Assembly: GCF_024298765.1 (NCBI RefSeq)
Contig: NZ_CP101210.1
Reading direction: 5' to 3' (one strand)
Length of the DNA: 64,000 nt
From: Escherichia coli
GTDB lineage: Bacteria > Pseudomonadota > Gammaproteobacteria > Enterobacterales > Enterobacteriaceae
Positions 3,200 through 59,069 of this stretch are shown here, piece by piece (within the stretch, counting starts at the first letter, position 1; every line of letters starts with the position of its first letter). A program made the translations under genes and the position numbers. A model generated the notes under the pieces. It was given only the letters and a program-made list of their open reading frames with translations. It did no database searches and had not been told where the DNA came from.

Positions 3200-3905
3200 T
3201 AATAAATATCCTCCGGCATAGCCGGAGGTTTTTCAAATGCGCCTATAAGGCTCTCTTACCAGCCGCGCCCTAACAGGCGCACACGATCTGACATTTGCAT
3301 CCAACTTCGTTACTTACGGCCCGTAAACGGGCTGCCCGGATAGGGAATCGATAACTGCTCTCCCATTTTATCCTCTTCAAGCTGGTGCTTTATGTAATCC
3401 TGTATCTTCGCCGTGTTCTTACCCACCGTATCGACGTAGTACCCTCTGCACCAGAACTCTCTGTTCCTGTATTTGAATTTCAAATCACCAAACTGCTCGT
3501 AAAGCATCAGACTGCTTTTCCCTTTCAGATATCCCATAAAGCCGGATACACTCATTTTGGGCGGGATCTCCACAAGCATATGGATATGATCTGCACAGCA
3601 TTCAGCTTCAAGAATCCGTACGCTTTTCCACTCACACAGCTTTCTCAAAATACTGCCTATTGCTCTACGCTTCTCTCTGTAGAACACTTGTCTTCGGTAT
3701 TTTGGCGCAAAAACTATGTGATATTTACAGTTCCATCGGGTGTGCGCTAAGCTCTTTTCGTTCCCCATTGGGACCCCCTTTTGATTTCTTGTTTGACACT
3801 TGCAGTTGCCAGACCGCAAGGTGTTTTAACAAATCAAAAGGGGTTTTAATAACTGGCTCAAAGCTGAAAGCTTTCCGGAACCCCCAGCCTAGCTGGGGGT
3901 TTTCT
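3200..3905 (-). mobile_element. IS200-family insertion sequence (~0.7 kb); ends approximate
   Basis: Single Y1/HuH transposase gene plus a perfect hairpin CCCCCAGC-ctag-GCTGGGGG (~3871-3889) upstream of tnpA, as in IS200; sits in what should be a short pabC-fabF spacer. Confidence 0.75.
3310..3768 (-). CDS. tnpA: IS200 transposase TnpA (IS200/IS605 family, Y1 HuH)
   Basis: 152 aa from MGNEKSLAHTRWNCKYHIVFAPKYRR, with HuH motif ADHIHMLV and a catalytic Tyr region; track ORF trimmed to the internal Met. Confidence 0.9.
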   Translation of the reverse strand: MGNEKSLAHTRWNCKYHIVFAPKYRRQVFYREKRRAIGSILRKLCEWKSVRILEAECCADHIHMLVEIPPKMSVSGFMGYLKGKSSLMLYEQFGDLKFKYRNREFWCRGYYVDTVGKNTAKIQDYIKHQLEEDKMGEQLSIPYPGSPFTGRK

Positions 3906-10360: not shown

Positions 10361-10546
10361 TTAACTTTGTAACGTCATAGAGTCAAAGAAAAAGGCAGCC
10401 TGTGGTTGCCTTTTGCCAATAATTCGCACACATTGCGGGTTACTGCTTTATTTTCGTTCAGTGCTGATAACGAACATCAACCTGCAAAACGAAGCGCATA
10501 GTTTAAAATGGCTATCATCAATACGCTATATCTGATGGAAAAAAAT

Positions 10547-11131
10547 ATGCCTAAACTTATTTTAGCCTCCACCTCGCCCTGGCGTCGCGCTCTTCTGGAA
10601 AAACTGCAAATCTCTTTTGAATGTGCAGCACCCGAGGTCGACGAAACTCCACGCAGCGACGAATCACCGCGACAGTTGGTGCTTCGACTGGCACAAGAAA
10701 AGGCGCAATCTCTGGCGTCACGTTATCCGGATCATTTAATTATTGGTTCAGACCAGGTATGTGTTCTTGATGGCGAAATCACCGGTAAACCGTTAACGGA
10801 AGAAAATGCCCGTCTGCAATTACGCAAAGCCAGCGGCAATATCGTCACCTTCTATACTGGACTGGCGTTGTTTAATTCGGCGAATGGGCATCTACAAACA
10901 GAAGTGGAGCCTTTTGACGTCCATTTCCGTCACCTGAGCGAGGCGGAGATTGATAATTACGTGCGTAAAGAGCATCCCCTGCACTGCGCGGGTAGCTTTA
11001 AGAGTGAAGGATTTGGCATTACTCTGTTTGAGCGTTTAGAGGGGCGTGATCCTAACACGCTGGTTGGTTTACCGCTAATCGCGCTGTGTCAGATGTTACG
11101 TCGGGAAGGGAAAAACCCGCTGATGGGATAG
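10547..11131 (+). CDS. yceF: Maf-like nucleotide pyrophosphatase
   Basis: 194 aa from [17 protein letters not shown] (Maf family); track ORF trimmed. Confidence 0.85.
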
Positions 11132-12202: not shown

Positions 12203-12774
12203 GGTGGGCGATTCTAATTAGCCAACAGGATTCGCGCCACTCATTTTTCTATGCTTATATTTAGTTTTGCACCTTATTACTTCACTACGTGATCACTTTA
12301 TTGATGGTTATTAAACCAATCACCAGCAAGAAGTGAAAAAACTGTGAGTAAGCGGGTGATAAATGGTAAAAGTCATCTTGCTATAACAAGGCTTGCAGTG
12401 GAATAATGAGGCCGTTTCCGTGTCCATCCTTGTTAAAACAAGAAATTTTACGGAATAACCCATTTTGCCCGACCGATCATCCACGCAGCAATGGCGTAAG
12501 ACGTATTGATCTTTCAGGCAGTTAGCGGGCTGCGGGTTGCAGTCCTTACCGGTAGATGGAAATATTTCTGGAGAGTAATACCCAGTCTGTTTCTTTGATA
12601 ATTGCGCTGTTTTTCCGCATGAAAAACGGGCAACCGACACTCTGCGCCTCTTTGAGCTGACGATAACCGTGAGGTTGGCGACGCGACTAGTCACGAGGCC
12701 ATCGGTTCACACCCGGAAAGGCGTTACTTTGCCCGCAGCTTAGTCGTCAATGTAAGAATAATGAGTAAGTTACG
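12203..12774 (+). promoter_or_regulatory. rne promoter region and long structured 5' leader
   Basis: ~570-nt ORF-poor spacer upstream of rne; the leader of rne is known to mediate RNase E autoregulation. Confidence 0.6.
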
Positions 12775-26520: not shown

Positions 26521-26937
26521 TTAATTTCCGCTCTGTAAAACGTTCATCATGCCTTTGATTTGCCCGCTCAACGCGCTAAGGCTCATCTGGTATTGCAGGC
26601 TGTTATCGGCAAACTGGGTGCGTTCGCGATCCATATCGACAGTATTACCATCCAGCGAGGGCTGGTCCGGAATACGGTATTGCAGTTCTGCGGTAGGAGG
26701 CGTCAGCGCCTGCGCCGGAATGTGTTGCGTTGAGGTCATCGTCAGTGCAACCACGCTTGTTGCATCCCGTCCACGTTGCATGACTTTTTTAAGTTCACTG
26801 GCAAAATCGATATCGCGCGCCTGATAACCAGGGGTATCGGCATTGGCGATGTTTGCTGCCAGCACTTCCTGACGCTGGGCGCGCAGATTGAGCGCCTCTT
26901 GTTGAAAACGTAAGGCGGCGTCGAGCTTATCGAGCAT
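26521..26937 (-). CDS. flgB: flagellar proximal rod protein
   Basis: 138 aa. Confidence 0.95.
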
Positions 26938-35243: not shown

Positions 35244-35348
35244 TCACGAGGGCGCATTCGCGCCCTTTATTTTTCGTGCAAAGGAAAACGTTTCCGCTTA
35301 TCCTTTGTGTCCGGCAAAAACATCCCTTCAGCCGGAGCATAGAGATTA

Positions 35349-36395
35349 ATGACTGCACCATCCCAGGTATTAAAGATCCGCCGCCCAGACGACTGGCACC
35401 TTCACCTCCGCGATGGCGACATGTTAAAAACTGTCGTGCCGTATACCAGCGAAATTTATGGACGGGCTATCGTAATGCCCAATCTGGCTCCGCCCGTGAC
35501 CACCGTTGAGGCTGCCGTGGCGTATCGCCAGCGCATTCTTGACGCCGTACCTGCCGGGCATGATTTCACCCCATTGATGACCTGTTATTTAACAGATTCG
35601 CTGGATCCTAATGAGCTGGAGCGCGGATTTAACGAAGGCGTGTTCACCGCTGCAAAACTTTACCCGGCAAACGCAACCACTAACTCCAGTCACGGCGTGA
35701 CGTCAGTTGACGCAATCATGCCGGTATTAGAGCGCATGGAAAAAATCGGTATGCCGCTACTGGTGCATGGTGAAGTGACACATGCAGATATCGACATTTT
35801 TGATCGTGAAGCGCGCTTTATAGAAAGCGTGATGGAACCGCTACGCCAGCGTCTGACTGCGCTGAAAGTCGTTTTTGAGCACATCACCACCAAAGACGCT
35901 GCCGACTATGTCCGTGACGGAAATGAACGGCTGGCTGCCACCATCACTCCGCAGCATCTGATGTTTAACCGCAACCATATGCTGGTTGGTGGCGTGCGTC
36001 CGCACCTGTATTGTCTACCCATCCTCAAACGCAATATCCACCAACAGGCATTGCGTGAACTGGTCGCCAGCGGTTTTAATCGCGTATTCCTCGGTACGGA
36101 TTCTGCGCCGCATGCACGTCATCGCAAAGAGAGCAGCTGCGGCTGCGCGGGCTGCTTCAACGCCCCAACCGCGCTGGGCAGTTACGCTACCGTCTTTGAA
36201 GAGATGAATGCTCTGCAGCACTTTGAAGCATTCTGTTCTGTAAACGGCCCACAGTTCTATGGCTTGCCGGTCAACGACACATTCATCGAACTGGTCCGCA
36301 AAGAGCAACAGGTTGCTGAAAGCATCGCATTGACTGATGACACGCTGGTGCCATTCCTCGCCGGGGAAACGGTACGCTGGTCCGTTAAACAATAA
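35349..36395 (+). CDS. pyrC: dihydroorotase
   Basis: 348 aa with the metal-binding DWHLHLRD motif. Confidence 0.95.
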
Positions 36396-36431
36396 AAATC
36401 GTAGCTTCCTGTTGTCATTAGGTTATTTTAA

Positions 36432-36447
36432 CTGTATAAATAACCAG
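36432..36447 (+). promoter_or_regulatory. LexA (SOS) box upstream of dinI
   Basis: CTGTATAAATAACCAG (CTG-N10-CAG), ~22 bp upstream of the dinI ATG. Confidence 0.8.
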
Positions 36448-36468
36448 TATATTCAACAGGGGGCTATT

Positions 36469-36714
36469 ATGCGAATTGAAGTCACCATAGCGAAAACTTC
36501 TCCATTGCCAGCTGGGGCTATTGACGCCCTGGCTGGCGAACTTTCCCGCCGTATTCAGTATGCGTTTCCTGATAATGAAGGCCACGTATCGGTACGTTAT
36601 GCCGCAGCGAATAATTTATCGGTTATTGGCGCGACAAAAGAAGATAAACAGCGCATTAGCGAAATTCTCCAGGAAACGTGGGAAAGCGCCGATGACTGGT
36701 TTGTCAGCGAATAA
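36469..36714 (+). CDS. dinI: DNA damage-inducible protein I
   Basis: 81 aa MRIEVTIAKTSPLPAGAIDALAGELSRRIQYAFPDNEG; track ORF trimmed. Confidence 0.92.
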   Translation: MRIEVTIAKTSPLPAGAIDALAGELSRRIQYAFPDNEGHVSVRYAAANNLSVIGATKEDKQRISEILQETWESADDWFVSE

Positions 36715-36735
36715 TATGCAGTGATTTTTGTTTTT

Positions 36736-36757
36736 GCCGGGTCGCCCCGGCTTTTTT
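36736..36757 (+). terminator. dinI Rho-independent terminator
   Basis: GCCGGG-tcgc-CCCGGC followed by TTTTTT. Confidence 0.75.
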
Positions 36758-37003
36758 ATTTTACTTGCGAATTGTGAGTACAAAATTTCTACACTTCCTC
36801 AAAATAATTGCACAATATGCTAAAAAAATATGAATGACATGCTGTTTTATTGTTCATATAAATCTTAAAAGCAAAAATTTATCTGTTCCCCCCTTTAAAA
36901 ATTCGGTGAATACCCTTACTTATTGGTATACTGAAGTTGCTTCAGATAAAAACGCATTGAACCTCGAATAACGTTGTCTAGTAACACGAATTAGGGGGCC
37001 ATG

Positions 37004-48748: not shown

Positions 48749-48857
48749 TGCCGGATGCGGCGTGAACGCTTTACCCGACCTACAAAATCTTGCAAAATCA
48801 ATAAATTGCAGGAACGATGTAGGCCTGATAAGCGTAGCGCATCAGGCAACTACGTTT

Positions 48858-53040: not shown

Positions 53041-53322
53041 TCAGCACACTGGCTCATGGATTAAGCACCTGATTGCAACCGTTTTCACTTTCCGTGCTTC
53101 TCCTAAAGACAGAAGCATCGACTTCGTGTAGGGTTTGCCAGCAAATTTATTTATCAACCGTCTTACAGACGCTTCCATTCTGGTTAGTGGTAGCGATGAT
53201 GCTATGCATAAAAACCTTGAAGCCTGCGCCTGGCGCGGTCAGGTCGGTGTCGCTATGGCAACAAGCCTAAAGGCATAACCCGACAGGGATAAGACGAAAA
53301 ATCCGAGATTAGTTAACCATAT

Positions 53323-54480
53323 ATGAATCCAGTACCCGCGCAACGTGAATATTTCCTCGACTCCATCCGCGCCTGGCTGATGTTGTTAGGGATCCCTTTT
53401 CATATTTCTTTAATCTATTCGAGCCATACATGGCATGTGAATAGCGCCGAACCGTCATTGTGGCTGACCCTTTTTAATGACTTCATCCACTCGTTCCGCA
53501 TGCAGGTATTTTTCGTTATATCCGGGTACTTTTCCTACATGCTTTTTTTACGCTATCCCTTGAAAAAATGGTGGAAAGTACGTGTCGAACGTGTAGGTAT
53601 CCCGATGTTAACAGCCATCCCCCTACTGACATTACCGCAATTTATTATGCTGCAATACGTCAAAGGGAAAGCGGAAAGTTGGCCTGGGCTATCATTGTAT
53701 GACAAATATAATACGTTGGCCTGGGAATTAATATCACACCTGTGGTTTTTACTGGTGTTAGTAGTCATGACGACGCTGTGCGTATGGATATTTAAGCGCA
53801 TCAGAAATAATTTAGAAAATTCTGATAAAACGAATAAAAAATTCTCGATGGTAAAACTATCGGTGATTTTTTTGTGCCTCGGCATCGGTTATGCGGTAAT
53901 AAGAAGAACGATTTTTATTGTGTATCCGCCCATTCTGAGTAATGGCATGTTCAATTTTATTGTCATGCAAACGCTATTTTATTTGCCGTTCTTTATCCTC
54001 GGCGCACTGGCTTTCATTTTCCCTCATCTTAAAGCCTTGTTTACCACGCCGTCTCGTGGCTGTACCCTTGCAGCAGCATTGGCATTTGTCGCTTATTTAC
54101 TCAACCAGCGCTATGGCAGTGGCGATGCCTGGATGTACGAAACCGAGTCGGTGATCACCATGGTCCTCGGTCTGTGGATGGTGAATGTGGTCTTCTCCTT
54201 TGGCCACCGTTTGCTTAACTTCCAGTCAGCGCGGGTGACTTATTTTGTTAACGCATCGCTGTTTATCTATCTGGTTCACCACCCGTTAACGCTGTTTTTC
54301 GGCGCATACATTACACCACACATCACCTCCAACTGGCTTGGTTTTCTCTGTGGCCTGATATTCGTAGTAGGGATTGCGATAATTCTGTATGAAATTCATT
54401 TACGCATCCCATTATTGAAGTTTTTGTTCTCTGGTAAACCGGTTGTTAAGCGTGAGAACGATAAAGCACCAGCCCGTTAA
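53323..54480 (+). CDS. opgC: OPG succinyltransferase (acyltransferase-3 family)
   Basis: 385 aa polytopic membrane protein, divergent from opgGH. Confidence 0.9.
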
Positions 54481-58316: not shown

Positions 58317-59069
58317 GTTGTCACCCTGGACCTGGTCGTACATTTAAGAAATTAAATCATTTCAACTTGGTTGTTAACGCAACCTGTATTTTGTTAACGC
58401 TGCGTTACGATGGAAAGTATGTCTGCGGAAATATTTTTAATAACTCACCCGCGCGTTGTATTTTTCTTTTTTTGTTCATACCAAAGTATTAAAACTCACG
58501 TAAATACGCTGTTATCTACGCAAAAAATATTTTGTTTTCTTTTAAATCTCCGTTTTCCGCTATCAAAAATCACCAGACAATCATTCTTCTTGCCCGTCGC
58601 TGATTGCTGCGATATGTCTTGCGCACAAGCCGTGACAAACCTCGTCTTTTTGCAGTAAAAAATTGTCCACGGAGGTGTGGAGAAAAAACAAGAACGTTTT
58701 ACATGACGAAAGGACTACACCGAAATATTTTTTATATGCATTATTAGTAAGTTAGCACCATTTGTATGATTTTTTAAAATTGTGCAATAAAAACCAAATG
58801 TACAACTTTTCTATCATTTCTAAACTTAATAAAACCTTAAGATTAACATTTTAATATAACGAGTTACATTTAGTTACATGTTTAACACTTGATTTAAGAT
58901 TTGTAATGGCTAGATTGAAATCAGATGTAATCCATTAGTTTTATATTTTACCCATTTAGGGCTGATTTATTACTACACACAGCAGTGCAACATCTGTCAG
59001 TACTTCTGGTGCTTCTATTTTAGAGGCAGCTGTCAGGTGTGCGATCAATAAAAAAAGCGGGGTTTCATC
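58317..59069. promoter_or_regulatory. csgB-csgD divergent intergenic regulatory region
   Basis: ~750-bp AT-rich ORF-poor spacer between the divergent csgBAC and csgDEFG operons; a known regulatory hub for curli expression. Confidence 0.8.

Follow-up and report, generated by a model that had tools for sequence, protein, structure and literature searches.

The window analysed here is a stretch of 64,000 nucleotides of the E. coli chromosome, in which the gene order pyrC-dinI-bssS-solA is the same as in K-12 and inverted with respect to the reference. A 501-bp query around the site under study matches 5425 of 5426 complete genomes, where it is annotated with pyrC and dinI. The LexA site lies in a 73-nt gap between an open reading frame of 348 amino acids (35349-36395) and one of 81 amino acids that starts at 36469. 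The product of the shorter frame matches the Pfam family PF06183 (DinI) with 102.1 bits against a cutoff of 24.2, and it aligns with the solved DinI structures (PDB 1GHH/7YWA) over residues 1-81 of 81 with E = 1.3e-49. The features of the locus are as follows.

35349-36395, + strand: coding sequence of pyrC (dihydroorotase), the upstream same-strand neighbour of dinI (open reading frame; Pfam Amidohydro_1; RefSeq annotation)
36430-36449, no strand assigned: LexA operator (SOS box), the 20-mer AACTGTATAAATAACCAGTA (position weight matrix, ortholog conservation, published motif list and EMSA)
36469-36714, + strand: coding sequence of dinI, 81 amino acids plus stop codon (Pfam DinI; PDB 1GHH/7YWA; RefSeq annotation)
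36736-36762, + strand: intrinsic terminator of dinI, with the stem GCCGGG/CCCGGC, the loop TCGC and a following T-run (terminator scan; sequence)

Between the pyrC stop codon and dinI, including positions 36396-36430, the terminator scan detected no intrinsic terminator. The 3' UTR of dinI (36715-36762) is short, the terminator stem beginning about 21 nt after the stop codon. In Klebsiella pneumoniae, the orthologous LexA-controlled dinI promoter drives expression of DinR, a small RNA that arises by processing of dinI's 3' end and represses ftsZ, and a Klebsiella-specific stretch in the dinI 3' UTR is the seed of this RNA (PMC10907235). DinR needs sequence upstream of the terminator that is specific to Klebsiella, whereas the 3' UTR in the window has only those 21 or so nucleotides ahead of the terminator stem.

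Other RNA elements in the window were sought with Rfam at the gathering threshold. The known pyrimidine-responsive leader hairpin PyrC_leader (RF02372) was found at 35299-35348 with 68.7 bits, directly upstream of pyrC, and there are no tRNA genes in the window. The remaining Rfam matches are listed here.

3778-3901, - strand: STnc490
10385-10553, - strand: SraB
12414-12750, + strand: rne 5' UTR element
48784-48826, + strand: ES036
58923-59014, + strand: ES056

The original prediction had read a LexA box upstream of dinI, and the 16-mer CTGTATAAATAACCAG is present on the + strand at 36432-36447 just as it was described. The fit to CTG-N10-CAG on which that reading was based is real as far as the pattern goes, but the loose pattern is no better than chance in the window, with CTGT-N9-CAG observed 6 times against 6.39 expected. 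Such a frequency is what would be expected if a chance CTG-N10-CAG had arisen in AT-rich DNA between the genes and regulated nothing. A search with the perfect palindrome TACTG(TA)5CAGTA likewise gave no match in the window at up to 3 mismatches, as the dinI site itself carries 4. The full site is far more distinctive than the loose pattern. A symmetrised position weight matrix (PWM), trained on 17 E. coli LexA boxes that did not include the one of dinI (PMC3009722 Table 4), gives the 20-mer 25.0 bits, a value within the span of the training boxes (13.4-28.0), and the runner-up position on either strand of the window reaches 10.96 bits. None of 200 random 64-kb Markov-1 sequences attained 25.0 bits, the highest score among them being 19.1, which argues against a chance occurrence.

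The right half-site reads CCAG instead of ACAG, a single deviation that also occurs in the recN, uvrB, cho and dinB boxes, and this half-site, together with the 4 palindrome mismatches, is within the range of proven boxes. The next-best PWM positions in the window, 53315-53334 (11.0 bits), 1128-1147 (10.9 bits) and 26638-26657 (9.3 bits), were rejected as LexA sites, as they score lower than the weakest reference box (13.4 bits) and do not exceed what random sequence gives. Also rejected was a second weak LexA box of the kind reported for Salmonella (heterology index, HI, 17.6): in the window, the region 36407-36426 has a CTGT left half, but the right half is not conserved and the spacer is variable.

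That the box is positioned over the dinI promoter, as had also been proposed, was borne out by explicit enumeration of hexamer pairs, in which the best sigma-70 candidate, TTGTCA-17-TATAAA, matches 10 of 12 positions and has its -10 hexamer inside the box. The putative promoter elements are as follows.

36412-36417, + strand: predicted -35 hexamer TTGTCA (best hexamer pair; conserved island 36410-36417 beside the variable spacer 36418-36428)
36435-36440, + strand: predicted -10 hexamer TATAAA, inside the LexA box (best hexamer pair, 17-nt spacer)
36446-36448, + strand: predicted transcription start, in the 3' half of the box (geometry, about 7 nt past the -10 hexamer; mapped start site in Klebsiella)

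An automated promoter scan reported no + strand promoter, because its rule demands T at position 6 of the -10 hexamer. An alternative -10 hexamer, TATATT at 36448, was rejected, as its -35 counterpart matches at 3 of 6 positions and its start point would land in the Shine-Dalgarno sequence. For the K. pneumoniae ortholog, the transcription start site of dinI was mapped by dRNA-seq and primer extension, and it is overlapped by the LexA box (PMC10907235).

The conservation of the locus was examined in 80 orthologous loci from about 25 enterobacterial genera, with one genome per species. A same-strand pyrC lies upstream in 80 of the 80 loci, and bssS is retained in 78. The LexA box is kept in every locus at 19.4 bits or more, and its distance to the start codon appears to be tightly maintained: the operator ends 19 nt before the dinI ATG (36469) in the window, exactly 19 nt before it in 65 of the 80 loci, and 18-21 nt before it in 76. 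The four exceptional loci, two from Trabulsiella and two from Buttiauxella, carry insertions in the 5' UTR that leave the spacing from the -35 hexamer to the box unchanged. In 255 kb of DNA flanking the orthologous loci, only one other site reaches 15 bits or more. A conserved box at a fixed distance from the ATG is hard to reconcile with a chance match. The column footprint resolves into three conserved islands with a variable spacer between them: one at the -35 region, one that takes in the box and its flanks, and one at the Shine-Dalgarno sequence. The CTGTATA and CAG arms of the box are invariant, and its central positions 36443-36444 vary.

The insertions in the exceptional loci have some features of their own. 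In Buttiauxella (loci L062 and L080, at about 1372-1488), an insert of about 125 nt separates the LexA box from the dinI Shine-Dalgarno sequence. This insert, probably ERIC, is a dispersed repeat that also occurs in E. coli, where the median genome has 7 copies of about 80-84% identity. In the two Trabulsiella species (loci L033 and L034, at about 1440-1500), some 40 nt are inserted at this same point.

LexA boxes also accompany the phage homologs of dinI (loci L082-L161), which share about 50-56% protein identity. A box was identified upstream of 72 of 76 such homologs, and its commonest distance to the ATG is 19 nt. The four loci that lack it are internal operon genes closely preceded by another open reading frame. 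This arrangement agrees with the LexA-controlled dinI operons of the Gifsy prophages (PMC3121763; PMC8072944). The Gifsy dinI-antirepressor operons, and the other phage dinI homologs, resemble the chromosomal locus in having the box directly upstream of the dinI homolog. A difference is that terminator-like palindromes precede the Gifsy boxes and antirepressor genes follow them (PMC3121763), whereas the chromosomal dinI is monocistronic and has no upstream terminator. In the phage promoters inspected, about 75 nt upstream of position 1201 of these loci, 17 nt separate the -35 hexamer from the 20-mer box, compared with 12 nt on the chromosome.

As the -10 hexamer lies inside the box, promoter function could explain part of this conservation, and the palindrome might be conserved only as the core promoter of dinI, comprising the -10 hexamer and the start site, and not as a repressor site. 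This explanation appears very improbable. The invariant CTG and CAG triplets fall outside the -10 hexamer (36435-36440), and the variable centre at 36443-36444 is the pattern of a LexA box. In addition, the phage promoters retain the box while their -35 hexamer is shifted, and the induction of dinI is lexA3-dependent, as described below.

LexA binding and LexA-dependent induction are documented in publications. Purified LexA binds the E. coli dinI operator in EMSA (PMC5999292), and LexA was detected at dinI of K. pneumoniae by ChIP (PMC10907235). The K-12 box ACCTGTATAAATAACCAGTA is the dinI LexA motif recovered upstream of UV-induced genes (PMC3009722 Table 4), and dinI figures among those E. 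coli genes for which an SOS box is known (PMC6590174). Induction of dinI by AZT is 49-fold, with a 39-fold dependence on LexA cleavage in the comparison of wild type and lexA3, and the HI of the box is 4.8 (PMC11228462 Table 1), a value that belongs to the K-12 allele and is below the level of about 15 that delimits sites similar to proven boxes. UV induces dinI as well (PMC3009722). Ciprofloxacin raises dinI at both the RNA and the protein level (PMC11002266), and in Salmonella dinI is induced 22.8-fold from a box 19 bp from the ATG (PMC8072944). The comparison of damage induction between wild type and a lexA mutant that had been suggested along with the prediction has therefore in essence been published, with AZT and lexA3 (PMC11228462), and a lack of DNA-damage induction of dinI is not what was observed. 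AZT is also reported to induce pyrC and the whole de novo pyrimidine pathway in a LexA-cleavage-dependent manner, without any LexA box (PMC11228462).

Given the conservation and the published binding data, the chance reading is refuted, with a residual probability that is practically nil. It is almost certain that 36430-36449 is the LexA operator of E. coli dinI; the original observation was confirmed and its interpretation is supported by the site, its statistical distinctiveness, the promoter position and the conservation computed here. The dinI LexA box is already known, being a textbook SOS operator of a classical member of the LexA regulon, and adds nothing new in itself. It resembles the operators of recA, sulA, umuDC, recN and sbmC in its CTGT-N8-ACAG-type palindrome, its AT-rich centre and its overlap with a promoter, as well as in the mode of control, in which repression by promoter occlusion is relieved by RecA-stimulated cleavage of LexA (PMC6590174). 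It differs from this set in being a single box with a CCAG right half, and dinI is among the most strongly induced members of the regulon.

The regulation is best explained as follows. In an undamaged cell, a LexA dimer occupies the imperfect palindrome CTGT-N8-CCAG and covers the -10 hexamer and the predicted start of TTGTCA-17-TATAAA, and we infer that RNA polymerase is thereby sterically excluded. Upon DNA damage, RecA filaments formed on single-stranded DNA trigger self-cleavage of LexA, and the operator is vacated. Derepression then yields a monocistronic dinI mRNA of about 310 nt, extending from a predicted start near 36447 to the terminator at 36736-36762, and DinI in turn modulates the RecA filament.

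An alignment of 100 nt centred on the box region shows a single difference between the window and K-12, at 36431, which is position 2 of the 20-mer (A in the window, C in K-12). The K-12 dinI SOS box occupies the same locus, with the same gene order and the same 19 nt to the ATG, and 19 of 20 box bases are identical. Exact 67-mer matches to the window version were identified in 207 of 5426 complete E. coli genomes, compared with 4568 of 5426 for the K-12 version. The A at position 2 is the consensus base, being present in 13 of 17 reference boxes; the PWM score is 25.0 bits with it and 21.0 bits with C (+4). It is also the commonest state outside Escherichia, and C occupies this position in the E. 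coli, E. albertii and E. whittamii representatives. Judged from the sequence, the minority AACTG allele of the window may tighten LexA repression relative to K-12; the published dinI experiments used the K-12 allele (ACCTG) and not the AACTG allele. In Salmonella, SNPs in SOS boxes were associated with differences in expression heterogeneity, as for yebG (PMC8072944).

The region around the promoter and the operator also has a conserved potential for RNA structure. When the + strand RNA of 36380-36470 is folded, a hairpin is predicted that encloses the dinI promoter and the LexA operator, with a 14-bp outer stem (36401-36414 paired with 36454-36467), a loop of about 39 nt, a minimum free energy of -26.7 kcal/mol and a z-score of -5.0, which becomes -6.7 for the 72-nt core of the hairpin. 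Its two arms are given below.

36401-36414, + strand: left arm of the outer stem, GUAGCUUCCUGUUG, with the cross-species consensus GCCCCCUGUUG (folds, footprint, pair counts, duplex test)
36454-36467, + strand: right arm of the outer stem, CAACAGGGGGCUAU, in near-invariant columns (folds, pair counts, duplex test)

The Shine-Dalgarno sequence of dinI, GGGGG (36459-36463), sits in the right arm, and the left arm, which shares positions with the -35 hexamer, occurs only in transcripts that come from upstream, that is, from pyrC. No Rfam family covers the hairpin, and a description of it was not found in the literature searched. In the cross-species consensus, each arm (GCCCCCTGTTG and CAACAGGGGGC) is the exact reverse complement of the other, which would explain the otherwise puzzling conservation of GCCCCC just upstream of the -35 hexamer. 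An outer stem of this kind was seen in all 12 diverse orthologs that were folded, and each of the 9 core pairs is formed by 75-99% of the 75 distinct sequences. The folded orthologs include the Citrobacter freundii group, in which the C-run is absent and GUAGCC pairs with GGCUAC in a shifted register.

The arrangement of the arms suggests a function that we tentatively prefer to the alternatives, even though it is somewhat short of an even chance, namely that the stem forms only in RNA that reads through from pyrC, where it sequesters the dinI Shine-Dalgarno sequence, and that DinI is translated only from transcripts of the LexA-controlled promoter. Transcripts initiated at this promoter would start between the two arms, and their ribosome-binding site would be free. 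In read-through from pyrC, the left arm would fold onto the Shine-Dalgarno sequence and leave dinI translationally silent, and this RNA may then undergo Rho termination and trimming back to the hairpin. As a result DinI, a modulator of RecA, would stay strictly SOS-dependent even at high pyrC expression. The stability of the stem, its recurrence in all the folded orthologs and in most sequences at each core pair, and the lack of a terminator between pyrC and dinI are all consistent with such a role.

Further support comes from a duplex test in which the 40 nt 5' of the box were paired with the segment between the box's 3' end and the ATG, with the LexA palindrome excluded. The mean duplex energy was -20.2 kcal/mol (z = -4.6), and in 70 of 75 loci no more than 1% of shuffles were equally stable; for the window the duplex has -21.7 kcal/mol against -7.8 ± 2.3 for the shuffles, with 0 of 200 equally stable. 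Folding favours the + strand over the - strand in 45 loci compared with 29, and in the window at -26.7 versus -19.7 kcal/mol, which fits the presence of G.U pairs in a sense-strand RNA. The changes seen in the core pairs are only C-to-U wobble changes, and in the left arm such changes retain G.U pairs. The 9 core pairs show 0 compensatory double changes, since the Shine-Dalgarno arm is invariant, and the structure is thus not proven by covariation. The predicted probability that the Shine-Dalgarno sequence is unpaired in the window is 0.00 in a read-through model and 0.35 in the promoter transcript, but the G5 run finds a pairing partner in shuffled upstream sequence nearly as frequently as in the native one (0.80 versus 0.92), so that accessibility of the Shine-Dalgarno sequence is a poorly discriminating measure. 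Two other points weigh against sequestration in read-through RNA: the left arm is partly constrained as the -35 hexamer, and read-through from pyrC is hypothetical, the Northern blot of Klebsiella giving a dinI mRNA of about 350 nt as the full-length species (PMC10907235).

The short dinI transcripts, the only ones reported in Klebsiella (PMC10907235), are also compatible with another set of explanations, in which the hairpin is an unusual terminator of pyrC, or a stabiliser of the 3' end of pyrC mRNA, or else a by-product of separate constraints on the -35 hexamer and the Shine-Dalgarno sequence. The hairpin lies immediately 3' of pyrC, where no other terminator was detected, and the right arm, like part of the left arm, has a function of its own. 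Nevertheless, a classical intrinsic terminator is unlikely, as no conserved U-tract follows the stem (the sequences there being, for instance, CAAUCAU and CGAUCAU), and a loop of about 39 nt also speaks against termination. The Term-seq tables of PMC7815308, which are incomplete and therefore uninformative here, list no 3' end near the hairpin and only a Rho-termination region inside pyrC. With respect to separate constraints, no role in the promoter is known for the GCCCCC upstream of the -35 hexamer, which in many genera is exactly complementary to the Shine-Dalgarno sequence. Taken together, these explanations appear somewhat less probable than the preferred reading.

Sequestration of the Shine-Dalgarno sequence in read-through RNA, the preferred reading, would have a counterpart among mobile elements. 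In the fold-back inhibition of the IS10 and IS50 transposases, the 3' arm of an inverted repeat covers the ribosome-binding site and the element's own promoter starts transcription between the arms, so that the occluding hairpin can arise only in transcripts initiated outside. Similarly, the 3' arm of the dinI inverted repeat covers the Shine-Dalgarno sequence, and the predicted transcription start near 36447 lies between the arms. Unlike in IS10 and IS50, the putative function at dinI would be to shield an SOS gene of the chromosome from pyrC upstream of it, and a repressor operator lies in the loop.

The dinI box serves as a positive control, indicating that real operators are recognisable from sequence alone by a first-stage reader. 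The AACTG allele represents a natural variant of the operator, carried by about 4% of the complete E. coli genomes, that is predicted to strengthen repression. If it is functional, the hairpin around the promoter and the operator would be a chromosomal example of translational insulation of a gene from the gene upstream.
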